Assembly: GCA_016214265.1 (NCBI GenBank)
Contig: JACROU010000024.1
Coordinates: forward strand, 5,223-69,222
DNA length: 64,000 bases
Reading direction: 5' to 3'
Origin: Candidatus Omnitrophota bacterium
Lineage (GTDB): Bacteria; Omnitrophota; Omnitrophia; Omnitrophales; JACROU01
Shown in pieces: positions 1-37,900 of this stretch. How positions within the stretch are numbered: position 1 is the first letter of the stretch; each line of letters starts with the position of its first letter. The notes below the pieces were generated by a model that had not been told where the DNA came from, searched no databases, and was given only the letters and a program-made list of their open reading frames with translations. The translations under genes and the position numbers were made by a program.

Positions 1-3000
1 TTGAACCGGATGTCCATCCACATAGTCGATCGTGCCATTGACTTGATCAATGACTCTGAGAAGCGACTGAACGATATTCGTTTTTCCGCTCGAATCCGTG
101 ACGGTGCTATATCCATATTCTGCGCCGGCAAGAGTGGTCAGTTGGGTGAGTTTTCCCGAGGCGTCATAAAATCGGACTACGTTTAAATCATTTGTGATTT
201 GAGTTTCATTTCCCGAATAGGCGTATTTGAATGTGCCCAGAAGATTTCCGGCGCGCGTCACGCTCGTCTGGATAAGACGGCCAAGTGCGTCATAACTCAT
301 ATCCATTTGCGTGAGCACACCATTTTCTGTGGATTCAATCTGAACCACCTTGTCATTTTGAACAATCGAGCGGCTCCCGCTTGCACTCGTAAATTCAGCA
401 AGATGCGCCACGGACACAGGATTGTTGTTGGCATCCAGCTCTTCGGCGATTCTATATTGGCGGCCATCGGTCATCGTGAGCCAAAACGGTTTATCCTGAC
501 TGACTTTGAGAAGAGTTCCATCGGCATACTTCACCTGCGTGAGAGCCTGATTCACGAAAGTAAGCTCTTTTACATCCGGCGTGATAATCAGAGCATCTTT
601 GAGATTGCCGTTGGCATCATGTGTGAAATTCTTGATGACGGTTCCATCCGGCTTTGTGATTTGGATGACTTGATCATTTGAAATGCCGAATACGGTTCCG
701 TCATGATCCACAAGTTCTTTTAACTTCCCGTCAGAACCATAAGTCCGCTTGAGGCCGTCACGGGACACGATGAGCCCTTGGAGGAATCCGAGAGGGTCGT
801 TGGCGAGTGCATATTGAGTTTCGTTTCCGCTTGCATCCAGCACACGATTGATCAGTCCAGACTCATCAAAGAAAAATTGGGTGCCGTCGCCCCGAGTCCA
901 CTTTTTGATTGTGTTGGAAGTTGTGTACTGAACTATTTGAGGAAGCGGGCTTGCGGGATCCAGCGTCACGCCTCCGCTGATTCGGGCTTCGTATCCATCC
1001 GGGGTTTGCGTGATTTGATAAAGGAAGTCCGTTCCCTGATACGCGATTTTTGAAAGCTTGCTTTGCGTGAAGAAAAATTCTGTGCCGTCTGATTTCCTAA
1101 AATCTTCAATTTCTCCTTGTGCATTTAAGGTGACCCGGTTGTCTCCCTCAAAAATATGCGTTCTCAATAAATTGCCGGAGACACCAAACGCATAGGTGTA
1201 ATAAACCACGCTTCCATTCGCGAGCACTTCGGCCTGGGCTCGTCCATCACTGTTATAGAAAATACGAGTTCCTTCAGGACGAAGTTCTTCGACAATTTTT
1301 CCTGCCTCAAGCCGGTACAAAACTTTACTTGCCGTTTCAATCCATCCGCCTTGAAGCACACCGCTTGCATCCAGGCTGGGATCAATCAAACCGGCCTCAG
1401 TCCCATTCAGATTAAACGTGATATTGGTCTTGCGCTCCGGCAGCGCCGGCTGAGCAAGGGCATTCAAGATCACGAGATAATAGGCCGCCACATGACCACC
1501 CCCGCTGGTCGGCACATCGACCTGAAGCAGATTGCCGCCGGAAGTCAGCGTGACGGATTTTGTCATGGGTGTCCCGTCACTGGTATAGGCGAGCGTATAA
1601 CTCGGATTATTCGTCAGTGTTGGGGAGTTGAAAACCACTTCCGGCAATTTCGTTTCGAGCATCACGTTGAAATCGAGTTTTGTTTCATTTCCTGCGGGAT
1701 CTTGTTCTGCAATCGAAAGTGTGTTCACACCTTCCGTCAGTGTCACACTTTTTGTCTTTTGCACTCCATCGACTGTGTAGACAAGCGAGTAATCCGGCTG
1801 ATTCACTGAGACAGCCGATGTCACCACCACCTGTGGGGCAATCGTATCGAGTGTCACATCGAAATTTAATTTCGTTTCGTTTCCTGCCGGATCTTGTTCT
1901 GTAATCTGGAGGGTGTTCAGTCCTTCGACTAATGTCACAGGTTTTGTTTTTTGAACACCATCAACGGTATAAGTCACAGTGTAGTCGGGTTTGTTGGTCA
2001 GCGAAGCCGAAGTCGCGGCGACAACCGGACCAACCGTATCCAGCGTCACGTCAAAATTAAGATTCGTTTGGTTTCCAACCAAATCTTGTTCGGCGATCTG
2101 GAGCGTGTTTAATCCCTCAACCAATGTCACGGGTTTTGTTTTTTGAACGCCATCGACGGTGTACGAAAGCGTGTAATCGGGTTTATTCACAAGATTCGTG
2201 GAAGTGACAGTGATAGCCGGAGCAACAGAATCCAGTGTTACATTAAAATTAAGTTTCGTTTGATTACCGGCAGCATCCTGCTCCGAAATCTGAAGCGTAT
2301 TCCCTCCTTCGGTAAGTGTCGCTGTTTGCGTTTTCTGTACACCATCCACGGTGTAGGAAAGTGTGTAGTCGGGTTTGTTAGTGAGTACGGCCGAAATCAC
2401 GGCGACAACCGGGGCAATCGTATCCAGCGTCACATCAAAACTGAGTTTCGTTTCGTTTCCAGCTAAATCTTGTTCGGCGATCTGAAGTGTGTTGAGCCCT
2501 TCAGTCAATGTCACAGGTTTTGTTTTTTGCACTCCATCGACGGTGTACGAAAGCGTGTAATCAGATTTATTGGTTAACGCGACTGAAGTCGCAGCAACTA
2601 CCGGGCCAATCGAGTCCAGCGTCACGTCAAAATTCAGATTGGTTTGATTAGCCGCTGCATCCTGTTCCGTAATTTGGAGGGTATTTACACCTTCGATCAG
2701 CGTCACGGGTTTTGTTTTCCGAACTCCGTCCACAGTGTAAGTCAGTGTGTAATCGAGTTTATTTGTCAACGCGACTGAAGTCGCTGCGACAACCGGAGCA
2801 ATTGAATCAAGTGTTACATCAAAATTTAAATTCGTTTGATTACCCGCCAAGTCCTGTTCGGTAATCTGAAGCGTGTTCAGTCCTTCGACCAATGTCATGG
2901 GCTGTGACTTCTGTACACCATCCACCGTGTAGGCAAGTGTGTAATCGGGTTTATTCACAAGATTCGTGGAAGTGACCGCAACAACTGGCGCAACCGAGTC

Positions 3001-5937
3001 CAGCGTCACATCAAAATTCAGATTGGTTTGATTACCAGCCGGATCCGACTCGGTAATCTGAAGCGTATTCCCTCCTTCGGTAAGTGTCGCTGTTTGCGTT
3101 TTCTGTACACCATCCACCGTGTAGAAAAGTGTGTAGTCGGGTTTGTTCGTGAGTACGGCCGAAGTCACGGCGACAACCGGGGCAATCGTATCCAGCGTCA
3201 CATCAAAACTGAGTTTCGTTTGGTTTCCAGCTAAGTCTTGTTCGGCAATCTGAAGTGTGTTCAGTCCTTCAGTCAATGTCACGGGTTTCGTCTTTTGAAT
3301 ACCATCCACGGTATAAATCAGTGTGTAATCAGGTTTGTTCACAAGACCCGCAGAGGTAACCGAGACAGCGGGAGCAATTGAATCAAGTGTTACATCGAAA
3401 CTTAAATTCGTTTGATTACCCGCCAAGTCCTGTTCGGTAATCTGAAGCGTGTTCAGTCCTTCGACCAATGTTATGGGCTGTGACTTCTGTACACCATCCA
3501 CGGTGTAGGAAAGTGTGTAGTCGGGTTTGTTCGTGAGTACGGCCGAAGTCACGGCGACAACCGGGGCAATCGTATCCAGCGTCACATCAAAACTGAGTTT
3601 CGTTTGGTTTCCAGCTAAGTCTTGTTCGGCGATCTGAAGCGCGTTCAGTCCTTCGACTAGCGTCACTGCTTTTGTTTTTTGAACGCCGTCCACAGTGTAA
3701 GTCAATGTGTAATCGAGTTTATTTGTCAAAGCGACTGAAGTCGCAGCAACTACCGGAGCAATTGAATCAAGTGTTACATCAAAATTTAAATTCGTTTGAT
3801 TACCCGCCAAATCCTGTTCGGTAATCTGCAATGTGTTCAATCCTTCAACGAGTGTAACGGGACGCGTTTTCTGTGCACCATCAACGGTGTACGTCAGTGT
3901 GTAATCAGATTTATTGGTTAACGCGACTGAAGTCGCTGCGACAACCGGGCCAATCGAGTCCAGCGTCACATTGAAATTCTGGTTCGTCACGTTACCCGCA
4001 GCGTCTTGTTCGGTGATGGTGAGCGTGTTCAGTCCTTCCACGAGTGTCGTTGTTTGCGTTTTCGCTACGCCATCGACAGTGTAGGTCAGCATATATTCAG
4101 GCTTGCTCGTCAATGCGCTTGAAGTCACCAGGATCAGCGGTGCGCTATCCCAATACACCACATCCTGAAACACCGAAATATTCCCCCACCGGTCGGCGAA
4201 TGATCGAAGAATCGGGTTCGCGCCTTCTTTCAACTGAATCTGCTCTGTGTACGCCTCACCGTCAATATCCAGAACAAGTTCATAATTCGACTGATTCACA
4301 AGGCCCTTCGACAAGCGCGTCACCACCGGTGCGGTTGTGTCTTGCTCCACAAGTCCGAACTTCACGTCCAGATTCGTGTTCGTCGAATACCACCACGGCG
4401 AGTTATTCCTCACATCGATCTCGAAAAAGCGGATGTTCTTAATATCCAGCGACCACGTGTAATCCGCCAAATCCAGCATGAAGAATTTCTCCTCATTCTG
4501 CGTGATCCCCTGAAGCGTGACCGATTTGCGCTGGCCGTACCAGTCGGTGATCACCAGTGACGCTTCTGTGACATTACCTTTTAGCGCAAGCCCCATCCGT
4601 GAATTCTTCGAAAAATCAAAGTTTTGATAGTTAGAGTTTTCAATTCTTGCCGCAAGCGGATTCGGCTGATAATAATAGTAATAGTTATTCCAGCCTCCCC
4701 ACCAATAATTGTTCCATCCCCAATAATTTTGCGACGATGATGACAACTGAAATTGCGTGTAATCCGGCGTTTGTGTGGAATTTACGTATGACCCGTAATT
4801 TGTCGTCACCCACGCGGGCTGGCCATTCGTGGTAAGCGGCATGAGGCCCGACAAGCCGAAACCGTTCTGGCCCTGAATCACATTCGGCTCATAACTTCTC
4901 ATGTACTGATTTTGAAAATAATTCTGATAATAATAATTGCCGTAATAATTTTGATAATACCCATACCCCCATGAATTCCAATATCCGGAATAATAGTTAT
5001 ACGGATAACCCCAATAGGCATATCCGCCGTGGCGCGGTGAGTAGGGATAATAACCGTTATAGGCGTTTGCCGGCGGCTGGGTACGCACAAACAAATATCC
5101 CTGCTGCTGGCCGTAGCCGTTGTAGGGATTGTAGTAGTTGTAAAAATTGTAAAAATTATTCTGATTCTGAAGCGCCGTCAGTTTTATCTGCCGAATTTGA
5201 TCCAGATCGAGATAACCCGAAAGATTCGTCAGATCAATATCATAAATCCGCTCTGAGCCGTATGAATTGGTCTGTAGCAGGTCCAAACTTACTTTGTTGC
5301 CAAACGCGTCTTCCATCTCAAAAAGAATTTTTTCCGAGTTACTGTCAATCGCGAACCGGAGATGATTCAATTTGGAAAAATCCGCCGACTCCACGAGCGA
5401 CGTCGATTCTTTATCGTAACTGAAAATAACGCCCGGCGCGGTGCCGGGATTTCTCAGGTCATAATCGACTTCAACACCTTCTCTGGAATTACTGACCATT
5501 GATGAGTGCAAACTTTTAATACTGGCCCCTGCTGGCAATCCGGTTAAATCATTTTGAGTGAGATTCCAGCTGGAGCTGACTGGCTGAGCCTGTGTCGCCG
5601 TATTCGCGGTAACGGGCTGAAGGGTTGAGCTCTGCGTCATAAAAGACGTGGTGCTCGACTGACTGGCGTTTTGCGTTAAAGTATTTTGATAAACCGAAGT
5701 ATTTTGAGTTTGAGGCTGACTGGAATTAGCTTGGACGACTGGCTGACTTGGCGTTTGTGTCTGCTGAGCCACTGGGGTGGCTTGCGCAAATGCACATTGC
5801 TGGGCAAGAAATGAGATTAGCGTGAACGCGGCGACTGCGCGGAATAAATCTTTTTTAAACTTTTTCGTTCCTCGTCTCTCACCTCCTGGGTAGGTGGACT
5901 TTGAGGTTCGATCAAATTTTTTTTTGCTTGAGAACAA
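1..5937 (-). CDS. Giant secreted/surface protein that is 5'-complete and 3'-truncated by the window edge (>1950 aa). It has a signal peptide, a Gln/Thr-rich linker, a Tyr/Asn/Gly/Trp-rich low-complexity region, at least 13 tandem 64-aa Ig-like repeats, and then YD/RHS-type repeats that run off the window.
   Basis: Hand translation of the minus strand in one frame (codon top coordinate = 0 mod 3) is stop-free at every stretch checked: 5937..5341, 4980..4921, 3660..3421 and 1440..1021. That frame gives ...TKKFKKDLFRAVAAFTLISFLAQQCAFA (signal peptide), then a Gln/Thr/Pro-rich linker, then WNSWGYGYYQNYYGNYYYQN, then repeats VTLDSIAPVVA..KPDYTL.YTVDGVQK...TL.EGLNTLQI.EQDLAGNQT, then YD-like ...YGSDGKLKELVDHDGTVFGISND.... 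The gene is absent from the ORF track because it has no stop codon inside the window. The start is ambiguous: in-frame TTG at 5937 (GGGGAG 7 nt upstream) or TTG at 5961. A strong AGGAGGTGA Shine-Dalgarno sits 10 nt before an in-frame ACG at 5868 that is followed by a canonical KKFKK-hydrophobic-AFA signal peptide. No in-frame ATG occurs until 5640. Confidence 0.72.
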   Translation of the reverse strand, partial: MFSSKKKFDRTSKSTYPGGERRGTKKFKKDLFRAVAAFTLISFLAQQCAFAQATPVAQQTQTPSQPVVQANSSQPQTQNTSVYQNTLTQNASQSSTTSFMTQSSTLQPVTANTATQAQPVSSSWNLTQNDLTGLPAGASIKSLHSSMVSNSREGVEVDYDLRNPGTAPGVIFSYDKESTSLVESADFSKLNHLRFAIDSNSEKILFEMEDAFGNKVSLDLLQTNSYGSERIYDIDLTNLSGYLDLDQIRQIKLTALQNQNNFYNFYNYYNPYNGYGQQQGYLFVRTQPPANAYNGYYPYSPRHGGYAYWGYPYNYYSGYWNSWGYGYYQNYYGNYYYQNYFQNQYMRSYEPNVIQGQNGFGLSGLMPLTTNGQPAWVTTNYGSYVNSTQTPDYTQFQLSSSSQNYWGWNNYWWGGWNNYYYYYQPNPLAARIENSNYQNFDFSKNSRMGLALKGNVTEASLVITDWYGQRKSVTLQGITQNEEKFFMLDLADYTWSLDIKNIRFFEIDVRNNSPWWYSTNTNLDVKFGLVEQDTTAPVVTRLSKGLVNQSNYELVLDIDGEAYTEQIQLKEGANPILRSFADRWGNISVFQDVVYWDSAPLILVTSSALTSKPEYMLTYTVDGVAKTQTTTLVEGLNTLTITEQDAAGNVTNQNFNVTLDSIGPVVAATSVALTNKSDYTLTYTVDGAQKTRPVTLVEGLNTLQITEQDLAGNQTNLNFDVTLDSIAPVVAATSVALTNKLDYTLTYTVDGVQKTKAVTLVEGLNALQIAEQDLAGNQTKLSFDVTLDTIAPVVAVTSAVLTNKPDYTLSYTVDGVQKSQPITLVEGLNTLQITEQDLAGNQTNLSFDVTLDSIAPAVSVTSAGLVNKPDYTLIYTVDGIQKTKPVTLTEGLNTLQIAEQDLAGNQTKLSFDVTLDTIAPVVAVTSAVLTNKPDYTLFYTVDGVQKTQTATLTEGGNTLQITESDPAGNQTNLNFDVTLDSVAPVVAVTSTNLVNKPDYTLAYTVDGVQKSQPMTLVEGLNTLQITEQDLAGNQTNLNFDVTLDSIAPVVAATSVALTNKLDYTLTYTVDGVRKTKPVTLIEGVNTLQITEQDAAANQTNLNFDVTLDSIGPVVAATSVALTNKSDYTLSYTVDGVQKTKPVTLTEGLNTLQIAEQDLAGNETKLSFDVTLDTIAPVVAVISAVLTNKPDYTLSYTVDGVQKTQTATLTEGGNTLQISEQDAAGNQTKLNFNVTLDSVAPAITVTSTNLVNKPDYTLSYTVDGVQKTKPVTLVEGLNTLQIAEQDLVGNQTNLNFDVTLDTVGPVVAATSASLTNKPDYTVTYTVDGVQKTKPVTLVEGLNTLQITEQDPAGNETKLNFDVTLDTIAPQVVVTSAVSVNQPDYSLVYTVDGVQKTKSVTLTEGVNTLSIAEQDPAGNETKLDFNVMLETKLPEVVFNSPTLTNNPSYTLAYTSDGTPMTKSVTLTSGGNLLQVDVPTSGGGHVAAYYLVILNALAQPALPERKTNITFNLNGTEAGLIDPSLDASGVLQGGWIETASKVLYRLEAGKIVEELRPEGTRIFYNSDGRAQAEVLANGSVVYYTYAFGVSGNLLRTHIFEGDNRVTLNAQGEIEDFRKSDGTEFFFTQSKLSKIAYQGTDFLYQITQTPDGYEARISGGVTLDPASPLPQIVQYTTSNTIKKWTRGDGTQFFFDESGLINRVLDASGNETQYALANDPLGFLQGLIVSRDGLKRTYGSDGKLKELVDHDGTVFGISNDQVIQITKPDGTVIKNFTHDANGNLKDALIITPDVKELTFVNQALTQVKYADGTLLKVSQDKPFWLTMTDGRQYRIAEELDANNNPVSVAHLAEFTSASGSRSIVQNDKVVQIESTENGVLTQMDMSYDALGRLIQTSVTRAGNLLGTFKYAYSGNETQITNDLNVVRFYDASGKLTQLTTLAGAEYGYSTVTDSSGKTNIVQSLLRVIDQVNGTIDYVDGHPVQ
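1600..4140 (-). repeat. Intragenic tandem array of about 13 copies of a 192-bp unit, each encoding a 64-aa Ig-like / 'VDTIAP'-type domain, inside gene A.
   Basis: The 8-mer tccagcgt recurs at 2423, 3191 and 3575, with spacings of 768 and 384 bp (4x192 and 2x192). Near-identical antisense ORFs at 2143..2466 and 3028..3234 in the track confirm the DNA-level repetition. The translated units are in-frame and begin with D-V-T-L-D-(S/T)-I-A-P-V-V. Confidence 0.85.
4650..5160 (-). other. Tyr/Asn/Gly/Trp-rich low-complexity segment of gene A (about 170 aa, aromatic-rich and prion-like).
   Basis: Minus-strand translation of 4980..4921 gives WNSWGYGYYQNYYGNYYYQN. The surrounding DNA is dominated by tat/tac/aat/aac/ggn/tgg codons (the plus strand shows ata/att/gta/cca runs). 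Confidence 0.7.
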
Positions 5938-6068
5938 TTCATTGCTCCCCGAATGCCCCAATCCTTTGGGTGACTAAGATCCATCTTCAGTTTTCTGTTT
6001 ATCCGTGTTTTTCCACTTGAAATTCCCAGGAATACAATTTCAAAGGAAGAATCAACATGTTGGTGCAA

Positions 6069-6175: not shown

Positions 6176-9100
6176 CTAAGCAGCGGTTTCAAGAATCCGG
6201 GTTTTCTGCCAGAGACGAATTTGTTCCTCAAGAATGGAAGGCAAAAGTTCGTAGGTAGAGCTGTTTATATCCATGTGGCGGAAAAGATAATTCCAGTCGC
6301 TCTTGTTACCAAAGGCATCGAAAACAGTTCTCAAAAGAGCCGACCGATAAGCTTCTTTCTTCAGCCCATTTTTTTGATGGACAACACGGAAAGCGCTCTC
6401 CGGCCAGCTTTCATTAAATTGATGATTGAGGAAAACAACCTGGTCCGGTCGTAATTCTGTCACATTTCCATCGGGAAACATTGCATCAACGATTCTCGTT
6501 TGAATTCGTGAAAGAAGAGCTTTTAGATCGAGCCGGGTTGTCCTTTCTAAATTACCCCACTTGACAAGATACACGTGCCTGTCTTTCAAAAGTGAGCCGA
6601 ATTCATCCTCCACTTTTCTAGCTATTTCCTCGTCTGGGACAAGAAAAATCACACCCTGTGTCCGGTAATCACTGCGAAAATCCCGTTGCTTATCCAACAG
6701 TTGCTCCAAAACATCTGCATCGAATTTCATAACAAGCGGCGTAAAACGAGGCGATTGAATCACTGAAGGTCCAAGGTTTCGCCTGTTCTCCCCAAGACTT
6801 TTTCCGGAAGATGCCGGTTCGGGGGCGGTAAAGACAATGCGGTATTCATATACGCCATATGGATTTTTATAATAATCCTTCGTGTAACGCAATTCGCCTA
6901 AAATTTTGTCGGAGTCAATTGGCGGTTCCCAAGCTCCACTATCTTCCCGCTTCTGTAAATAGAATGCCAATCCGCCGCCTCGATCTGATAACACCAACGG
7001 TTGTTCTATTGTGATAATGTCATGATTTTTACTTTTTGCTTCTAACGCAGTCTCCAACGCCCAAAGGATACGTATGAAAAAGGCATGAGAGGTGTCGGCG
7101 GGCGTAGAAAAATCAGGCACGCTTTTGTAAATTTCGGACAAACGTGTTTTTAAAATCTCATAATCCTGGAGAAATTCAGCCATTAATCTTCCCTTAAATT
7201 CTTTTTCTTCTCCCACAAGCATTCTGCCAGTCTGATGTTTTGCCAACTTTGGCCAAAGATCGTATAATTCAGTTGATTGTTGTTTTTTGACTAATTCTTG
7301 CTTCTCGATCACTGCTCGCTCCAATTGTAATGGGACAGCATTCATCTCTGTTTGTAAAACCCGCAACTCATTATCGGAAGGTTTTTGATAGTACGCGTGA
7401 CCGGGGAGCTTTTTGGCAATAAAATCCACATTCTTTGCTGTCCCGGAATCCAGATCAGAAATCCGGCTTGCCCTTTCCAGAAATTCAGTAACCGCTTTCG
7501 AAAAATCATTTCTCATTTTATCGGGTATTTTTGCGTCAGAAACGATACCGAGCATAATTTTACTGGCATCCTTGAGCCAAACTTTCTGCCTTTCAACATA
7601 TTCTTGCGGCGTGTCATGAAATTTTCCATGTCTGAGGTGAAACAATTCTGCTTGTATCTTGAGAAACTGGATAAGCAGAGAATCATTGGATGTGTAACAA
7701 GTTAGGGTTTGCATAGCTCCGGTCTCATCCGTAAACATAATAAATTCCGGCTTAAAATTGGCGAACCCTCCCCCATGAATAAGTACGATAAGCCGCCTAT
7801 AGGTGTCAAAATGAGGCGAGATGCTGGGATTGGGGTTAGATGGATCAAATGGTTTTGGTGGCATCGGTGGAGCTGGAAGAGAATAATATTGAGGGTGATC
7901 CTCCACGTACTGCAACGATTTACGGGCTCCGTCAAAATCTCTGGCCCAAATTTGATCAAGAATTTCTCTTTGTGTTTGTCGAATGAAACTCATTCGATCT
8001 TCAACCCTTTTCTTTGAAAGATATGTAGGGATGTTGCTGATAGCTCCAGTAACAAGACAACCAGCGCTAATCAGCGCAAAAAGAAGACAGCCTTTTGAAA
8101 AACGTCTGGAGGGCTTTTTGTCGGTGTCAAGGAGCGCAACAACGGCCTGCGCTTTTTCTGATGACGCTGTTTTTCTGACTTTCTGAGCTGGTGATGGTGA
8201 TTTCGGCTTTCCGGTAACAGCCGCCGCAGTCGTGGCGCTGGCAGTTTTGGCTACAGCGTTTCGTTCCGACGGCTTGTTCAGCTGAAAAAGCACCGTCAAT
8301 TTGAAACGCTGCCCGACCTGGGGGGCAAAAGCACCGTTCACATCCACTTGTTCCGGCAACTTGATCGATTTAAGTCCGTTTTTATCAGCGGGAATTGGCG
8401 GCTGAAATTCCCGGGTCGCTGGATTCTCGCGCTGGACGAAAACAGTCAGCTTTCCCTCCTTTGTGTCAAATTCCAAGTTGTTGAGCTGAATCGGCTCGTT
8501 CTTCCTGCGGCGACTCGAAATTTCAGCAAGAATGCGCTTGAGAATTCTCAGATTATTTGGAACTTTGGGATCTGACGCTGAAAGCTCGAGCTCCCTTTGA
8601 TACGCGAGAATGACCTGCTCATAAATGTTGTCAGGTGTCGGCGGCAAAGTGCCTGATGCGATACCCAAACTTTTTCCGGAAGAAGCCGATTCCAGAGCGG
8701 TAAAAACAATTCGGTATTCATATTCACCCATGGGGCAACATATCCGTCTGACGCGAAATTCATCAAGGATAGATTGGTTGCCAATAGTCGGACACCACGG
8801 CTCATTCCCTTTCCGTTTTTGTAAATAAAAAGCTAACCCACCTCCTGGAGCAGGCAAAAATAGCGGTTGTTCGATACGAATAATTTCACCTCGAGATTTT
8901 TTTTCTTCCAAGATTTGCTGCAAAGTCTCTTTAACTATTGTCATAAAAGCCTTAGGGTGCCCGTTCGCTTGGTTATCTCGTGGCATCCCGTATAAATACT
9001 TCTCCACAATTTCACGTCCGCGAACAAGTTCATTGACAGGTCTGTCGTAATCACGAATCTGATGAGCTAGTACCGCTAACCATAACTCGAACAATCTATC

Positions 9101-25900: not shown

Positions 25901-28900
25901 AAGTTCGTCAATAAGCGTGAATACACCGCTCTGGATTTTTAACCCCTCAACAGATCGGGTTGCATCAACACCTTTTGTAATTTTGATGAAGAGATCTTTT
26001 AGGGAGGCGCTGTCTCTGCCCTGCTGATAATTTTGAACTGCCAATTGCGCAAGAACTCGAAGACTTTCAAGATAAGAAGAATTTAGCAAGTTCTGGGCGG
26101 TATCAAATTCAGCGCCGCTGGTGACTTCACGCGACGCCAAATCTGCGTTTAAAGCTTCTGCAGAATTTAAGACATTATCAATCAGTAGCTGAAGCACTGC
26201 ACTGGTATCAAGGTGTGATTTTTCTACTGCCAGTTGAGTCAGCAGTAATCGACTCTCAACCAGAAGTTGTGTATTCACTGCAAGCTCAAGTTGTACGCCG
26301 GTGAGACCGGTACCAGCGGCTTGTGCACGTTCAAAGGATGCAAAAACCTGAGCCGAGGTGACGGTACTTGAAGGAGTTGACACAGCGACAACAGGGACTG
26401 GTACATTATTGTTTTGTGCCCGGAATGTGGCCAAAACAACTTGCTGTGATTCATTGACTAGTCTGAGTAATTGAACAAGGGCCAGGATGTTTTCTTCGGA
26501 CGCTGATTTTTCAAGATTAAGCAGTTTGAGTAAATCATCCAGGCTCAATTTGGTTACAATCACGTTGCCGGCCGCATCCAGACTGATCATTCTTCCCCCG
26601 TCGGGCGTAACGATCAACTCATAAGCTTTCTTGCTATCCAAAAAGCCTTGAATATCGGTGCTGGACGGTTCTCCTGACTCCGGATGATTGTGCGTCAGAA
26701 GTTTTACCTGATCCGAATTTAAAAATGCGGTTAACGCATCAGTGGTTCGAACCTCTTCCGTAGTTCCCGTGGAATAGACGACAAATTTGCCACCCACAAC
26801 AACAATCAGAACCTCGTACCCAAGTTTTTGAATTCTCTCGAGCATCGAGAGAGTGAATGCATTTTCTTCCATCACAAAAGCAACTGGCTTTTGCTGTCCG
26901 GGTTGCGCGTTAAAGTCGAGAGCATCCATGATGGGGCCGAATGCCTTCGTTTGTATGGCTAGATTGAATGTGGAAGTCGTTATTTGTTTAATCTTTGCCT
27001 GCTGCACCGCCGGCATTTGATCGGCTAGCGCCACCATCTGCGCGAAAATCCCCATTTTTTCCAGAATGTTCACCCGGGAATCTTGTAACTTGCTATTTAA
27101 AGCATCGTACTGGGCTAACAAATTCATCATGGTTTCAGCCGTCTTCAGAGATTCTCCCGTCATCGCACTGAGTGCTCTCATATTATCCATGGGCAGAGCG
27201 GCCTGAGAAACTTGAGCGATAATCTCGGGTGTAGCGTCTGTTCGCTGTGCGACTGCTTGCGTCAACGCATCGATACTTGCCATGGCGGATTTCACCTGAA
27301 TTTCGATAGCGGCCAGCGCATCACGCGCAGCTTTCATGACTGTCGGATCCGTGGTCTCGGCGATAATTTTCTGAAGCGCGCCGGCAGCTTCCATTTGAGA
27401 TTGAATTTGCGCGATCAAGGTCTGAATTTGGGTTGATATCGCCACGGCATCAATCGGGTTTGCGGTGTTTTGAACACTGGCGGTAGTGTCCGTCACGGGC
27501 TGCTGGGCATCAGTAATTGCCTGCGTTGTTTGCGGAGCCGCTTGCCTGTCACTCACAATTGTTTCCATCGCCAAAACACGGCTGGTCATTTCCGTGTTTG
27601 TTTGATTGATGTTGGCCGCGGCCGCAACTGAAAGATTTTGCGCAAGAGCGGTGGCAATTTGATTCAATTCTGTGAGTGATTCACGTGCTGCCTGAACTCC
27701 CTTTTGTGCGAGCGCCGGATCGTTCGTTGCTGCGGCGGCATCAAGAAGCATTTGGATTTCCATTTGCAAATCCGCCATGCGCTGAAATTGATTTGCGATT
27801 TGTGTGATAGCGGCCAAATTGGATTCTAGCTGAGAAACTTGTTTTTGAACTTCCTGAACAACCTGTTCGCTGACCACTCCTTTGGCCTGCAATTCCTGAA
27901 GAATGGCGAGCGTCATTTGAGCTGATGCCACAGCATCGCGGGCTGTGGTTTCAAGCGTGCGAGCGCTTTCGAGTTCCGTCGCGTTCTGCGTTCTGGCGGT
28001 TGCCTGGGAGATGGCTCCCGTAGCATCACTCAAACTGCTGACTGCTTGAGATGCCCTCGTTACATTTGCTGCCTGCTCGGCCAGACGTGTTACCACATTT
28101 TGTGCGGCTTCAACCGCTGATTGGGGAACAAATCCTTCCCGGGCCAGCTGTTGAATAGTCGCAAGATTCGCTTCAGCAGATGCGAGGCTTGCTTGGATAT
28201 CGCTAATGATTTGCCCCGCCGCTTGCACGTCAAGATTACTTTGCGCGGTTTGCGCACTTTGTTGTGTCGCGACTGCATTCGCGTCAATTTTTGCAGCAGA
28301 CACGGCGGCTTTCTGGGCTCCAGCGAGTTCTGTTTGTGCCTGTACGGCCGCTTTCGATGTTTGATCGATTTCGGCTTGGGATGCTCCAGCAGCTTTCTGC
28401 ACATCCATCTGCTGAAGCAAATTATTAAGCCCCTGGGTTTTCATCATGACGACGTCCGCAAACGCCTGCGCAGCATCCATACGCTCTTGGTCACCCGACT
28501 CTTGAGCCTCTTGCAGTTGTTTTATCGCGTCATCAATGCTCGCGATCTGAGCATCAATCGCGGCATTACGTGCCGCGGCATCTTTTTGCGCCTGAGTCCT
28601 CATATCTTGTGTCGCTGTGGTGACTGTGCCGTCGGACTGTTGAGTGGCCGTGACTTGCTGACTGTCTGTGGTAGTTACGGTAACCACCTCGTTACCTGAA
28701 CTATTCGTCGCGACTTCAATATTGGCAGCCGTGCCTGCCTGAGTCATAACCACATTACCGTTTGAATCCAACAATTTGATTTGCGACTCTTGCCCAAACT
28801 GATTTTGAGACTCAATCACCGTGTTTCCACCGTCGGTTTGTGTGACCGTGAATTGAGCGCCCGTGGTCAATGTGTACGTGGTTTGCGTTCCTCCATCCAC

Positions 28901-31900
28901 TTGGGTTGTGACAGGAACTCCGGACACAGTACCATCAAGAGACACAACAGTTTGTCCCACATCACTCGTGAGTGTTGTCGAGCTTGTTGTTTTCGTAGTT
29001 ATTTGAGTGATAGTTCCCGCATCCGTTCGAGTAACAACAACGGATTGGTTGCCTGACATCTGAACGATAAAGATTTGCCCCTCCTCAATCGATGAAACGG
29101 ACGTGACGGTTCCGCTAGTCTGAGCAATAAGATTTCCATCTGAATCTCTAATTTTAGTGGTATTCAATGTGCCATACACGTTTGTCTGCTGAATTACCGT
29201 TTGGCCCGAGGGGGCTTCGGTTACCACAAAACTGGTGCCAGTATCTGTCTTATAAGTAATCTGCTGATTTCCAGATGCATCGGTGGTTACAGGTGAGGCA
29301 CTCGTAATTTCCTGAGTTGTTGCCAAAATTACAACTCCTTCGGTATTCGTCACGGTTGTCTGCACATTACCAACTTTGTCGGTTTCCTTCACAATGACAT
29401 TACCGGCCATATCCGTTGCTGAAGTAACAGTCGAATCAGTAAATGCGACTGTAATCTGAGTTCCTCCAAACGGACTTGGCGAAGAAACAATTGAAGCCGC
29501 TGAATCGGTTACAATGTCGGCAACCGTTCCCTGCGACGAGGTGACAACGGTTGTCGTACTTCCGTCAGTTTGTGTTGTTTGAACTATCGTAAAACCGTTT
29601 GGTGAAGTGGTAACGCTCGTCACAGCGCCAGCATCCGAAGTAATGGTTAGCACGGTATTGCCATTCTGATCCGTGCTCGAAGTAACATTTTGAACTACTC
29701 CGTCAATCTGGCTGATTTCGCTTCCTTTTAGATCATAAACTTGCGTGGATGATTCCGCACCTTTTGTCATCGTCAGCGTCGTAAGCGAATTTGTGGAGGA
29801 AAGAGTCACGGTCTGCCCCGTAGTCATGGCGAGTGAAACATTAATTTCGCCATTTGCTCCCAAGTTCGCAGAAGCGGAAATCGGGGATCCCTCCTGCACA
29901 CCTAACGTGTTTCCATAAACATCTTTGAATGTTGTTTGTGCCGTTCCGTTCGCATCTTGCGTTGTAGTTACTGTTCCCATCAATTTCGTTGCAGAATAAA
30001 GAGTTCTTTCGGATGTCGTTGTGCCCGTTTCTGCGTTAAATTTGATCACAAATTTTGTTCCATCTGCCAGCGTGAATGTTGTGGCCTCCGCCGTTACCGT
30101 CGGAGACGGTGTGGAAGTCGCAATCTCACCCACAACGACGTTATTGGGACTTGTGACAGTGTGCGGACTTTTTACACCGTCGGCAGTTTCACGCGATGTA
30201 AGCAGCGTTCCATTGTTGAGCTGATAGACGACGACTTTGGACTTATCACCAAGCGTGTAGGTTGAAAGAACGCCGCTTTCCGTTGTTTCGGTTGCAATGA
30301 ATCCAACATAAGTGGACTCAGCCATGACAATTTTTCCGCCGGCCGACTCAATTTCCGAACTAACATTCCGGTTCGCGTCCGTTGTCTGCCTCAGTATCTG
30401 CCCACCGGGCAGCTGTTCAATTTCAAGGATGCTATCTTTCACCGCAATCGTAATCAGCCCGTCCTCGGAAACTGACAAGGTCGTCACCGATCCGGCAACA
30501 GGCTTTGACAAAGCCCTGCCTTGTGCGTTTTCCACCGTAGTCGTAGTTGTTGTTCCCTTCGTCGTACTGATAATTGCATCACCTGCAAAGCTTCTGCTTA
30601 TAGAAACAGTACCTGCGGAATCTGTTTCAATTGTGGTCGTTGTCAGACGTGTTTCAGGACTGTAGCTCTGACGAACCGCGGTTACAGCGCCTTGAGTTGA
30701 GGTCAGAAATTTTCCGGTAGCATCGAATACACGAGACTCAGCTGCGGCTCCGCTTCCCTTGGCAACAACGATGGTTCCGTTGGGGGCCTGTTTAATTGTG
30801 GTTGTGACACCGCCCTGAATCTGAATAGTGGTTACGTCATTGCCATCGGCATCTTTGCTGATTGCCGGCGCATCGATTGTTCCGGAAATTTCTGTGATTT
30901 TTTGACCCGACGCGGTGAACACTTGGGTTTGAACACCTGCTATTTTTGATGTCTTTGTCACAATATCTGTTTTTTGAGCGTTGTGTGTACTCGTAATTAC
31001 ATCACCATTCACAAGCGTAACCGTTAGTTTTCCAGATGCGTCTTCCTTCGCAGATTCAACCGCGCTATCGCTTGTAAAAATTTCCGCCTGGCTTGAGCTG
31101 TAAATTGTTGTTCGAACCGGCTGTCCCGCTGTTTGGATTTCCGCAACTGTTTGCAGTGAAGTTCCTTGAATTAATTTTACGCGTATTCCATTGGCAAAAG
31201 TAATGATCGAAGTAACAGTGCCTTCAGCATCCGTGCCCGATTCGCTCGACACCACGTCGCTTGGAACCGTAGCAATAATGATTCCGGAACTCGTTTGAAT
31301 GACGCTTGCGGATTTTTCTGCAGATTTCCGGGTCATAACGGAAACTTGCTGTGACGTGCCCGGATTAAGACGTGATGTTGTTAGCACGGAACCGTCAGGC
31401 ATTGTTTGAGATTCCGATGACGTCGAGCCTTGAGGAGCTGCTCCCAAATCGGTGAGATTATTTACCCCACCAAGAACCGCGCTCAGAAAATTTTGAAGGA
31501 GTTGATTCTCTACATTCGCCTGCACTCCGGCGGCAGCTTGTGTTGTGGCTTGAGATACAACCGCTTGTGTTTCGCTCACTCGCTGCGTTTCGACTGCACC
31601 TACAAGATTGCCACGGACATTGTTAAATGTATCCTTTGCCAGATAAGCGGCAAGATCTTGTTGAATAGCCTCATTGGTTCTAGGCACCAAAGTGGGCAGA
31701 ACTTCCTCAAAAGAAATATCGTATTTCCTTTCTTCTACAGGAATTAGCGTGCTTAATTGCGTTCTCAATTTTTCTTGATCTGCTTCGCTGAGGCTTGAAA
31801 TCAGAACTGTCCAATTCTTAGACAAGATTTCTAAAGCTAATCCTTGAGGCAAACCATTAAAAGCGCCCGCTTCATTAACGGTCATTTTTACCAGCACACC

Positions 31901-34900: not shown

Positions 34901-37900
34901 TTCATCAATTCCCATCCATTTGTGAAGCACATAGGTACCGAAGAAATCGCCGGCGAGTTCCTCAACAAAAGCTTCATCGATTACGCCGCCGACTTGCTGA
35001 CCGACAAATTGCCCCAATTTTGAGGCGAAATTCTGGCTGATTCTTCCTCCCAGCTTGGTGGATAATCTCCCCATCCAATCTCCGGTACTTTCACCGGCCT
35101 TATTGATTCGGACCCAAGAGTTCCAAATGCCTCCGATTCCTGTAGTCGTTTGTTTACCAGATGAGTCAGCCGTAACTCCTAGAGTATCAAGGGTCCTTGT
35201 TACCATTCTTACGGAAGATCCCATCGAAACGGAAAATCCAACCTGGCTTTGAACGCTTTTCAATAAATTCATCCCAAATGTGCCTGCGGCGGCTGTAAAT
35301 CCTGTTCCCATCGCGGCTCTTTCAGCGGCAGACATGCCAACATCAAAAGTCTGTCTGAAGAATTGTACAAACGGCTGCTCTTTAATGCCATTTAAAATGG
35401 CCCGGCCCCAAGATTCCTCCCCTCCTTTGAACAAAGTTCCGAGCAAATTTTTTCCGCCGGTTTTTATGGCGTCCCAGGTAACACTTGCTGTTCCTTTTAA
35501 TCCGGACAAAAGTGCAGAACCCAGCCCAGTGGTTCTATAAATGCTTAGGGCATCATTGAGCACAGTGCCGAGACGGCCCAAAAGTCCAACCTTGCTGGCC
35601 GCCTGCTTTGATACCATTTTAGCCAGTGTCGACCCGACGGCGCTCATGCCTTTTGTGCCAATTGCGCTGGCAACACTGCCGACAATCACAGCTACATCGG
35701 CCAGAAATGGTATCCACGATTTTTCGCCTTTCTTCACATTGAAGTTGCCAAGCGAACCTGTGGATTCCAATGCTGGAATCAAAAGTCCCGCAACAAGTCC
35801 AAGGGCAGGACCGCCAACAATGGATAAAGCGGCTAAGGAAGCATAAGTTGCTGTTTGAGCCACTTGATATCCTGCAGAAATGGCCGTATAGATCCCGCCT
35901 TTTTTTGCCGCATAGTCGTAAATGAGTGCGGCACCATCCTTTTGATTCTGTACAAATGTCTCATCAGTTAAAAGTTGGTATGCTTGACCGGCAAGAGTAT
36001 AGTTCTTGATAAAACTTCCAATGGGAGAATCCGCAATGTAATTGAATGCTTTTCCCGCAACATTGGTAATTCCGCCCCATGCTGTAGAGAGAGCGCTTCC
36101 TACTGTTGATACAACGCTACCGATTGATTGACCCATAAACGAAAATGTATCTTTGACGAATTGCCATGCGCCTGTTTGACCTGTTGAAGTCATCTGTGCC
36201 TGCTGTGTCTTCGGGACTGGCGCAAATTCAATTCCGCGAAGCTGAACAGTATTCGTTATTGTAGTAGTATCATTGGCAAATTCCCGGCCGGCAGCATCAA
36301 AACCGTTCTGAGCCGCATTGAACCAATAATTAAGCGTCGAATGAAACCAATTAGTTTCTTTTTCCGTTACAGATTCGGTTAACTCTGTATTTTGGAAAAT
36401 TTCACTAGTAAGATTGGCGTCACCGCCGCCATATTTTTTTAGAGCTATGCCCTTTGCTTGTGTCAGGTCAGTAACAACTCGATTTTGGTCATCCTTTATA
36501 ATATTCCCGTCCGGTCCTCGATATAAGGTTATTGGTTCTCCAACAGATTTTTCTCTTCTGTAATTTTTTCTAACGCCGTCCATATCTATCGTATAGGTGC
36601 CGAGCTTAAACCTGCCATATTCGTCAATCACAGTTCTGGGCTGCTGAATGTTTCCGTTCTTGTCTCTGAAAGCGGTGCTGATATCAGTAAATCCAGTAAA
36701 ATTACCGGCCTCATCTTTCAAGCGGATATTTCTGTAAGGGAGTCCATCAGCGCCAAACCCCATGGTTCCAACGTTAACGAGCTCACCTTTTGGGTTGGTG
36801 TCAAAGAAGTTATATCCCAAAGAACCATCAGGTTTTTTAGAAACAACTGCCGCCGAGCCCACTATGGATGAGGAACTTTCACCGACGAGATTGCGTATAG
36901 CGCCGCCTGCACCACTCGGATCATTGCTTACGATTACGATGCGTAGTGCATTATCATCCAAAGGCGGAGTGAAATATAACTTGCCATCTACTACAATACG
37001 AACGGCAACTTCCTTCATTGCGCCCGATACATCAGCTGCAAAAACGCGGGTAGTGTTTATCTCTGTAATTTGTGGTTTACCGCCGATATTTGCTTCAACC
37101 AGTTTTTTGTCAACTTGTAACCTTGTGTGTTGCACCTGCCCCTTATCGTCGGTCCTATCTATACTAACTTCAGTTCCAATAGGTCCCTCAATGGTTCCGT
37201 TGTCATTAAGAATAGCGCCCGATTTTGTGAACCGCACGACTGTATTCTCGCCTAACTTAACGGGCTGCGAAATGTCTATAGCGCTAATTCCGCGCGATGA
37301 TCTGATGGAATTATTTGCTTTGTCTTCAATCGTTCCGTTTTTCACGACATTGTCAATGACAACTACACCGCCCCGATAAATCACCCCCTTTTGATCTGTA
37401 AATCCATCCTGCACATCCATGCGTGTTTTACCGTCAACAGTAATCGATGTTGTCTGCTCCTTCCCTGTGCTATCCTTTTGCGTAATAGATCCTTTAGTCA
37501 AAACATTATTTTCCATAATTGATCCTGCTGCCAAAGTGGTCCGGCCCTCATTGTCTAGGCTGATGTCTTGAAGTGCTTTGATCGTAATAACTTTTCCATC
37601 AACAATGACCTGTTCCTGCTTCTCTGAGCGAAGCGTACCGGTAATCTTCTGCTTTCCATCAGAATCAATAAATATAACGGTTCCTGCAATGAGGATGGAG
37701 CCATCCCTATCATTCATGGCCATGTCTGTCTGAAGTTTCTGGATTCCGAACTGTTTGCCGTCAGCACCGATCTGATACGTAGTCACAGAGGCAATAACTG
37801 GTTTTCCATCTGCTCCCAAGACTATATTGCCCGTGAGCGGATCAGTTTTGTATTGATTGATAATCATCGTTCCATTCACAACTTTTGGTTGCCCATCTTT

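Follow-up and report, generated by a model that had tools for sequence, protein, structure and literature searches.

JAB/MPN+ (JAMM) enzymes are known as cytoplasmic peptidases and isopeptidases of ubiquitin-like systems, C-terminal toxin modules or RadC-type domains. A stretch of 64,000 nucleotides from a Candidatus Omnitrophota bacterium (contig JACROU010000024.1, positions 5,223 to 69,222; hereafter the window) contains a giant gene, named gene D, which encodes two copies of a small domain with the residue pattern of these enzymes: copy a, beside the N-terminal signal peptide, and copy b, deep inside the protein. The canonical JAMM motif is E-Xn-H-S/T-H-X7-S-X-X-D, and in the paradigm represented by AfJAMM, Rpn11 and Csn5 zinc has the two His and the Asp as its ligands, while the Glu serves to activate the bound water and the Ser to stabilise the intermediate (Ambroggio et al. 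2003, PMC300881). According to Zhang et al. (2012, PMC3482391), the prokaryotic JAB domains identified before their toxin examples were all intracellular; in that study Tox-JAB-1 and Tox-JAB-2 (DUF4329) are C-terminal toxin modules and predicted nucleases.

The minimal prokaryotic JAMMs PfJAMM1 (5ld9/5lda) and AfJAMM (1r5x/1oi0), as well as Prok-JAB (PF14464), show the same order of Glu, His-x-His, Ser and Asp as the family to which the two copies belong and, going by the domain size of the latter, the same small size without Ins-1 and Ins-2. Prok-JAB is also the Pfam model matched by most members of the new family (25 of 60). Enzymes of the PfJAMM1/AfJAMM type are cytoplasmic, stand-alone proteins that act on SAMP or ubiquitin-like protein (Ubl) conjugates, whereas the new domain lies behind a signal peptide and is fused to giant proteins; their spacing is x7, whereas the copies in D have x6, fall under the Pfam cut-off and have no Ubl, E1 or E2 gene found nearby. 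The second comparison is with RadC (PF04002), whose string HNHPSG..PS..D is close to HNHPESGEPSSTD of copy b. RadC models are the most frequent weak matches of the new family in NCBIfam, and the tandem JAB repeats of polyvalent proteins of phages and conjugative elements reach 97.4% probability against the family in hhalign (P0079, four repeats). RadC proteins, however, are intracellular with a predicted role in nucleic-acid processing, whereas the new family is predicted to be extracytoplasmic; no relative was found in 2.9 million viral contigs. Tox-JAB domains of RHS-type polymorphic toxins likewise place a JAB fold in secreted RHS-repeat proteins, and the HTH of the new family is reminiscent of the motif of Tox-JAB-2 (E, H[ST]H, S, D). 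These domains are C-terminal cargo with adjacent immunity genes, whereas the new family is N-terminal, copy b lies about 4,200 amino acids (aa) from the C-terminus, and the gene downstream of D encodes an AAA_14/DUF4143 ATPase; Tox-JAB models were weakly matched by 1 of 60 members each. Finally, the C39 and S8 domains of Omnitrophota giant proteins (West-Roberts et al. 2023) occur in the same lineage and at the same place beside the signal peptide, and a role in cutting the giant protein or other substrates has been proposed for them (10.1101/2023.11.21.568195). They are Cys and Ser peptidases of another fold, whereas the new module is a metallo-type JAB domain.

The two motifs and their assignment to the JAB/MPN+ superfamily

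Two H-x-H...S-x-x-D motifs had been pointed out in gene D by an earlier sequence-only reading. Both were found where it had quoted them, together with their flanking peptides, and the interval 26654..26692 was exact for HNHPESGEPSSTD. The pattern H.H.{5,8}S..D occurs at two sites in D and nowhere else in D or in the neighbouring genes; 0.0165 sites are expected per composition-preserving shuffle of D, and two or more sites were obtained in 0 of 2000 shuffles. The paralogy proposed for the two regions was confirmed, since they align over about 91 aa with 27% identity (pairwise E 6e-8) and are each other's best non-self match within the whole of D (E 5e-6 and 2e-5). A third copy was not found by the two-copy profile in D, in the neighbouring genes or in the six frames of the window. 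Two details of that reading had to be corrected. The RadC-like string HNHP.SG..PS..D belongs to the copy at aa 10292, which it had listed first, and not to the second; and instead of the unequal spacings that it gave (x8 and x6/x7), the alignment pairs HTH, not HAH, of copy a with HNH of copy b, which results in H-x-H-x6-S-x2-D in both, the six residues being IEDKPP in copy a and PESGEP in copy b.

The domain spans about 100-125 aa, and both copies keep all five catalytic-type residues (Glu, His, His, Ser and Asp). Their order, Glu ... His-x-His ... Ser-x-x-Asp, is that of the canonical motif, and the corresponding columns are 96-100% conserved in 119 domains of the family. The surroundings of the Glu of copy a fit E-x-x-G-x-L-x-G, which we take to be a JAMM form. 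Judged from these alignments, both motifs probably mark the metal-binding and catalytic site of a single kind of small domain, present in two copies that diverged long ago.

This domain very likely belongs to the JAB/MPN+ superfamily, as four lines of evidence agree: weak matches to known models, a transitive link, the predicted structure and fold searches. Prok-JAB was matched by 25 of 60 family domains in Pfam (best E 5e-4, still under the cut-off), RadC by 4 of the 60, and DUF4329 (Tox-JAB-2) and Toxin-JAB1 by one each, while unrelated Pfam families were matched by 1-2 of the 60 each at most. Two RadC models of NCBIfam were matched by 9 and 6 of the 60 members, and the archaeal desampylase model by one. 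The family profile also found P0079 and P0107, with four and three JAB-like repeats, respectively. P0079 (1,232 aa), a polyvalent protein of phage type that also contains Mu-F and ADP-ribosyltransferase domains, passed the Pfam RadC whole-protein cut-off (28.8 bits vs 22.1) with its repeats summed, no single stretch being significant alone. When the family was compared with the JAB repeats of P0079 and P0107 by hhalign (97.4% probability, E 1.6e-11), Glu, HxH and S..D were in register. Against the sequences of the Protein Data Bank (PDB) the family profile aligned its HxHP..PS..D block to the Mov34/MPN protein 2kcq (E 0.45), and nothing significant was obtained there in profile searches. Going by its sequence matches, the domain is a family of its own, captured by no Pfam or NCBIfam model, and was filed at the superfamily level only.

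AlphaFold models of the domain were built on alignments of 6 sequences, a limit set by the almost empty results of the word-indexed searches. Two independent models were obtained, with a predicted local distance difference test (pLDDT) of 85.8 and a predicted template modelling (pTM) score of 0.80 for one, and 80.5 and 0.77 for the other. Both share the topology beta-alpha-beta-beta-alpha-beta-alpha-beta-beta-beta-alpha, in which strand 2 is immediately preceded by the Glu, strand 4 closes with HxH and the helix after it begins with S..D. In the model of copy b, DSSP placed H79/H81 (model numbering) where strand 74-80 ends and S88/D91 where helix 89-98 begins; at the level of predicted models, this is the arrangement of the MPN fold, with HxH at a strand end and S..D at a helix start. 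Foldseek ranked PfJAMM1 first (E 5.8e-4, probability 1.00, TM 0.51/0.56), followed by 2kks and AfJAMM, so that the best structural matches are peptidase-type JAMMs and not RadC. The JAB/MPN+-like pattern of Glu, HxH and S..D suggested by the sequence-only reading was thus borne out by its family-wide conservation, by the enrichment of sub-threshold JAB-clan matches, by the profile-profile link to RadC-like repeats and by the top Foldseek match. What did not hold was direct recognition by Pfam: the JAB hidden Markov models (HMMs) stayed below threshold on the D copies, and it is the family-level and structural evidence that favours JAB. The lack of a JAB-family HMM match, which the sequence-only reading had itself named as refuting, thus formally applies to the D copies.

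P0107 (2,067 aa) and P0079 are of the phage/polyvalent type, with three or four tandem JAB domains (HNHP..FS..D, HYHP..GPS..D) plus Mu-F-like and ADP-ribosyltransferase domains, which indicates that multi-JAB architectures exist outside Omnitrophota. PDB matches of the repeat profile of these two proteins to designed 'Pizza' beta-propellers were discarded as a repeat artefact, each stretch having E>=20.

The family and its place in giant proteins

Family members were collected with the two-copy profile, which was run by HMMER against the whole of a library of 1.84 billion representative proteins and matched 115 of them at E<=1e-3. With the rebuilt profile, 108 proteins showed one strong domain each (E 1e-17 to 1e-41); the repeat-type matches P0080, P0081, P0108 and P0109 were left out as repeat artefacts. 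The consensus was fEVGIaVl.GeIVLFTSG...EI....a..LL..AsfiaHTHPe..GPS..Dl..Ag...EYViT..GVYAYN..G. In 119 domains the Glu was conserved in 117/118, the first His in 116/118, the second His in 115/118 and the Asp in 116/116, whilst the motif Ser was kept in 113/117 and replaced by Thr in the others. The loop from His to Ser ranged from five residues (HFHHDGPPS) to more than 10.

The position of the domain is nearly constant. It starts at a median of aa 128 and within the first 350 aa in 101 of the 108 proteins, the other 7 starting at aa 530-606. Among the 92 matches with a domain start at aa 90-350, 87 open with Met, and a hydrophobic stretch resembling a signal peptide is present in 78. Protein lengths reach 7,110 aa, many of the entries being fragments. 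In BLASTP, about 100 family proteins aligned to D at aa ~265-463 only, besides copy b, which indicates a conserved N-terminal module carried by otherwise unrelated proteins. Its order is signal peptide, low-complexity linker, a YEYERYsFedA..LL.PeYA segment, JAB domain and a helical eAR..LN.FI...D.YN segment; the extended consensus reads yeyerYsFedAldlLrPdYAsA before the JAB domain and veAR..LN.FI...D.YN in the helix after it. Complete family members carry RHS repeats, F5/8-type-C (discoidin) domains and Ig-like domains.

Twenty loci from GTDB species genomes were retrieved with one close subfamily as query, so that their taxonomy is biased to that subfamily: 12 are titled Omnitrophota, Omnitrophica or Omnitrophus and 8 are metagenome-assembled genomes (MAGs) of 'uncultured bacterium'. 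Up to three paralogous loci were present in one genome, and the open reading frame (ORF) usually ran on for more than 3,000 aa from the domain, up to the end of the fetched DNA. The cluster names added one further Omnitrophota record and one 'Verrucomicrobiae' MAG record, and no relatives were found in 2.9 million viral contigs. On these records the family appears to be restricted to Omnitrophota and nearby MAGs of the Planctomycetes-Verrucomicrobia-Chlamydiae (PVC) type.

Copy a matched the family profile at E 3e-30 over aa 321-419, with a median identity to the family of 33%, and lies within 350 aa of an N-terminus that bears a signal peptide. By sequence and position it is an ordinary though divergent member. 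Copy b matched at E 1e-19 with a median identity of 27.5% and departs from the others in its position, being the only domain of 110 that starts deeper than aa 606. It resembles the YSTG...HFH subfamily, which is itself N-terminal in its proteins. Word-indexed homologue searches returned no relatives with copy b or with D aa 9900-11400 as query, and 4 short proteins only with a 60-sequence family profile; relatives of copy b were not found in the metagenome scan either.

The product of gene D is probably a giant secreted protein, going by its leader, which is of an F-x-x-Q-ending type also seen in family members. Along the protein follow the N-terminal JAB module, an RHS_repeat near aa 3722 (the sole above-threshold match in the Pfam scan of D), a hydrophobic pair at aa 7245-7303 and copy b at aa 10230. 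Internal repeats other than the JAB copies are almost absent. The hydrophobic pair (35657..35833, minus strand) comprises the only two strongly hydrophobic, transmembrane-like segments inside D in the hydrophobicity scan, 21 aa apart and in the middle of the protein. They may form a membrane hairpin; if so, both JAB copies would face the same side of the membrane. Weak repeats of ~130-200 aa with 27-33% identity and no Pfam match were seen at aa 8782-9616 (about 28718..31222, minus strand), and aa ~640-1311 of D are common to the family proteins P0004, P0114 and P0115 (24-26% identity), also without a Pfam match.

One question is how a second copy came to lie so deep in D. A recent intragenic duplication of copy a was rejected, because the identity between the two copies is 26%, against up to 42-43% between either of them and other members of the family. 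Tandem giant genes are common round family members (loci L010 and L016 and the window), which makes the fusion of two adjacent genes plausible, and the simplest view is that copy b is a relic of fusion or recombination between two tandem giant genes. The sole alignment in favour of fusion, which pairs the leader of P0038 with D sequence upstream of copy b, is weak and of low complexity. Copy b may mark an ancient fusion of two giant genes.

As a class, the domain is not new. What appears to be undescribed is the family itself, together with its restriction to Omnitrophota, its use as an extracytoplasmic N-terminal module of giant proteins and the second copy deep inside D: JAB is unmentioned in the preprint of West-Roberts et al. 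2023 (10.1101/2023.11.21.568195) and in a 2026 survey of Omnitrophota genomes, and no mention of Omnitrophota was found in the top-ranked literature on JAB-type domains. More than 100 large or giant proteins of Omnitrophota with a conserved and apparently active JAB module behind their signal peptide would amount to a new deployment of the fold. The module offers a concrete handle, amenable to mutation, on the export and maturation of bacterial giant proteins, and in fragmented metagenome assemblies the family profile can help to recognise genuine N-termini of giant genes.

Predicted activity and possible roles

The family evolves fast and yet keeps all five residues almost without exception, which speaks for an active enzyme, and the domain is likely a hydrolase, as judged from its sequence. 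By analogy with the JAMM paradigm, Zn2+ would be held by H379, H381 and D391 in copy a and by H10292, H10294 and D10304 in copy b, the zinc-bound water would be activated by E340 or E10251, and the tetrahedral intermediate would be stabilised by S388 or S10301. Lying behind a signal peptide, the domain should act outside the cytoplasm. We tentatively favour a role as a peptidase or isopeptidase that helps giant proteins to mature, either the one that carries it (in cis) or sister proteins, because the domain has a fixed place beside the signal peptide in otherwise unrelated proteins and because N-terminal C39 and S8 peptidase domains have been reported at the same place in other Omnitrophota giant proteins (10.1101/2023.11.21.568195).

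In the family, a conserved motif of the form [FL]-R-[SRA]-[GA]-x was found ~55 aa downstream of the domain; its first residue is F or L in 63/66 sequences and its second is R in 59/66. It is degenerate after copy a, and in one subfamily it takes the form FRRGGT, loosely like the LRGG tail of ubiquitin. By its sequence the motif is a candidate cleavage site, or else may be merely a structural hinge. A bolder version of the maturation role, which must be regarded as a long shot, would see in the N-terminal JAB module a protease dedicated to maturing a whole class of giant surface proteins in Omnitrophota: after export, a cut in cis at the FR site would free the ectodomain from the signal anchor, and copy b, at its FRAQN, would split the 14.5-kaa precursor in two. 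In that case the domain would represent the first JAMM protease that is extracytoplasmic and self-processing.

Several observations weigh against an active JAMM-type peptidase in D. Neither copy reached the gathering threshold of Prok-JAB (PF14464), RadC (PF04002) or JAB (PF01398); fragments of 330 aa round each motif gave no JAB-clan Pfam match at E<=10, and copy b as a 120-aa piece reached Prok-JAB at E 0.13 (12.6 bits vs a cut-off of 25). The x6 spacing of the D copies (x5 to more than x10 in the family) departs from the canonical x7, a departure treated here, on the alignment, as variation in loop length that does not exclude the domain from the superfamily. The support for the fold stays at the level of topology and DSSP. 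Copy b lacks the C-terminal EYV..GVYAYN block of the family, and in P0082 a copy-b-like internal domain has no HxH, which indicates that internal copies can decay. RadC, the nearest clade by sequence, is a predicted nuclease and not a peptidase (PMC3482391, PMC5512222). No Ubl, E1 or E2 gene and no CD-NTase association was found in the 20 loci, whose coverage is mostly upstream and which have no conserved upstream neighbour; hence, a classical ubiquitin-like substrate is unlikely. Recurrent upstream neighbours, in few loci, were the histidine kinase and response regulators of two-component systems. As regards cleavage itself, the sequence and model analysis yielded no evidence.

The domain might instead be a secreted effector hydrolase directed against prey or host material, either isopeptide and peptide bonds of the envelope or, following the predictions for RadC and Tox-JAB, nucleic acid. 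Strong conservation of the catalytic residues and an extracytoplasmic location behind a signal peptide would suit such an enzyme as well, as would the adhesion and carbohydrate-binding repeats of family members (F5/8-type-C, Ig-like, RHS), the predatory role proposed for Omnitrophota giant proteins (10.1101/2023.11.21.568195) and the presence of RadC, with its proposed nuclease role, among the nearest sequence models. However, an effector would not be expected to keep one N-terminal place by the signal peptide throughout more than 100 proteins that are otherwise unrelated, the known JAB effectors of polymorphic toxins are C-terminal and accompanied by immunity genes, neither of which was found here, and the best structural matches are peptidase-type JAMMs and not RadC. 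Taken together, these points make an effector unlikely.

It is more doubtful that one or both copies are dead MPN-type scaffolds, like Rpn8 or Abraxas, that would serve in folding, docking or export recognition. The N-terminal place does resemble that of the trafficking domains of polymorphic toxins, and the C-terminal block lost from copy b and the missing HxH of P0082 point the same way; but all five catalytic residues are kept in both D copies and in at least 96% of the family, which is unexpected for a pure scaffold.

In the sequence-only reading, each copy was taken as a possible mark of an autoprocessing site at which the 14.5-kaa chain would be cut into separately released modules. Copy b, deep inside D with its active-site residues kept and followed by the FR motif, is where such a model is most at home. 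After copy a, however, the Arg of that motif is absent, and its GG version is confined to one subfamily. The deep internal copy has no counterpart in the family (0 of 108 relatives), so that internal release is not the general job of the family; likewise, the near-exclusive N-terminal place (101 of 108 within 350 aa) argues against copies that generally mark internal release sites. The same reading had appealed to JAB domains as processing peptidases of polymorphic toxins, for which no precedent was found: Tox-JAB-1 and Tox-JAB-2 are described as C-terminal toxins and predicted nucleases (PMC3482391). We therefore consider autoprocessing at each copy quite improbable.

The weakest alternative, chance motif matches in a very long protein with domains unrelated to JAB, would accommodate the lack of an above-threshold HMM match for the D copies and their non-canonical spacing, but is extremely improbable in view of 0.0165 expected against two observed sites, the paralogy of the regions, a family of 108 members with invariant motif residues and the hhalign probability of 97.4%.

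Neighbouring genes and shared leader motifs

The window is dominated by giant genes on the minus strand. The coordinates of gene D, of the features discussed above and of the neighbouring genes are collected in Table 1.

Table 1. Features of gene D and of neighbouring genes in the 64,000-nucleotide window (position 1 is the first letter of the window; aa numbers refer to the product of gene D)
Feature	Position (aa)	Coordinates	Strand	Basis or remark
Gene D, single uninterrupted ORF, 14,531 aa		13970..57565	minus	Listed as an ORF; no stop in the frame scan
Signal peptide or signal anchor of D, RLYLKKIIAAGTAFTFLFTQVNILSAYSLP	19-48	57422..57511	minus	Hydrophobicity maximum 2.07 in first 60 aa
Leader motif in D, EFMFEESPLSS		57140..57172	minus	[DE]-F-[LM]-x-[DEQ]-x-S-[PS]-L-S
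Conserved N-terminal module round copy a: pre-JAB segment, JAB domain, post-JAB helix ARQALNNFVTKVD	265-465	56171..56773	minus	BLASTP and extended consensus
JAB/MPN+-like domain, copy a, canonical N-terminal family member	317-439	56249..56617	minus	
Predicted catalytic Glu of copy a, E340, in FETGIGVLNG	340	56546..56548	minus	Family column E20, conserved 117/118
Stretch of copy a, HAHTHIEDKPPSLEDF, HAHTHIED from aa 377	377-392	56390-56437	minus	
Putative metal-site motif of copy a, HTHIEDKPPSLED: H379, H381, S388, D391	379-391	56393..56431	minus	Aligned to family columns H59, H61, S68, D71
JAB/MPN+-like domain, copy b, divergent, internal	10230-10355	26501..26878	minus	
Predicted catalytic Glu of copy b, E10251, in YEVLIVVVGG	10251	26813..26815	minus	Invariant column in two alignments
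Putative metal-site motif of copy b, HNHPESGEPSSTD: H10292, H10294, S10301, D10304	10292-10304	26654..26692	minus	
FRAQN after copy b	10381	26411..26425	minus	Match to [FL]-R-[SRA]-[GA]-x
AAA_14 and DUF4143 ATPase gene, 480 aa, between giant genes		12216..13658	minus	Pfam
Orphan gene downstream of D, 1,952 aa, internal tandem duplication		6176..12034	minus	
Partial ORF running off the window start, secreted giant: four Big_13 Ig-like domains, RHS repeats		1..5973	minus	

The AAA_14/DUF4143 gene is the only gene of ordinary size in the window with clear Pfam domains, and its exact protein was not on record in the public gene index. The duplication in the orphan gene comprises residues 507-1124 and 1130-1748, with 48% identity over 655 aa. 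The first 125 aa of the two halves are identical at 121/125 positions (10142..10516 and 8273..8647), which suggests a recent gene conversion or a homogenised segment. The partial ORF at the window start contains a low-complexity tract rich in Tyr, Asn and Gly (YYNPYNGYGQQQGY...) and shares up to ~40% identity, over 650-1,150 aa, with a giant ORF of Omnitrophota (locus L016), which by itself would point to Omnitrophota as the probable source of the window.

The leader motif [DE]-F-[LM]-x-[DEQ]-x-S-[PS]-L-S sits ~50-100 aa past the signal peptide and is common to the secreted giants of the window, with or without a JAB domain. Apart from D it occurs in the upstream gene (57771..63410, minus strand) as QDFMSDSSSLSAPE, at about aa 107-122, and near the N-terminus of the partial ORF as SFMTQSSTLQP; in JAB-family members elsewhere it reads FLQNDSPLS or FLVSDSPLSP. 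By its distribution in these sequences it may be a lineage-specific sorting or anchoring signal. The signal-peptide core, in turn, often ends in F-[LF]-x-[STN]-Q-[IVT]-x-P (D, P0002, P0017, P0022, P0038, P0051 and others), as in FLFTQV of D, FVFTQV of the upstream gene, and FFFSQT and FLFHQI of relatives. A regular expression for this core end, too loose for quantification, matched 58/107 N-termini vs 25/86 internal control windows.

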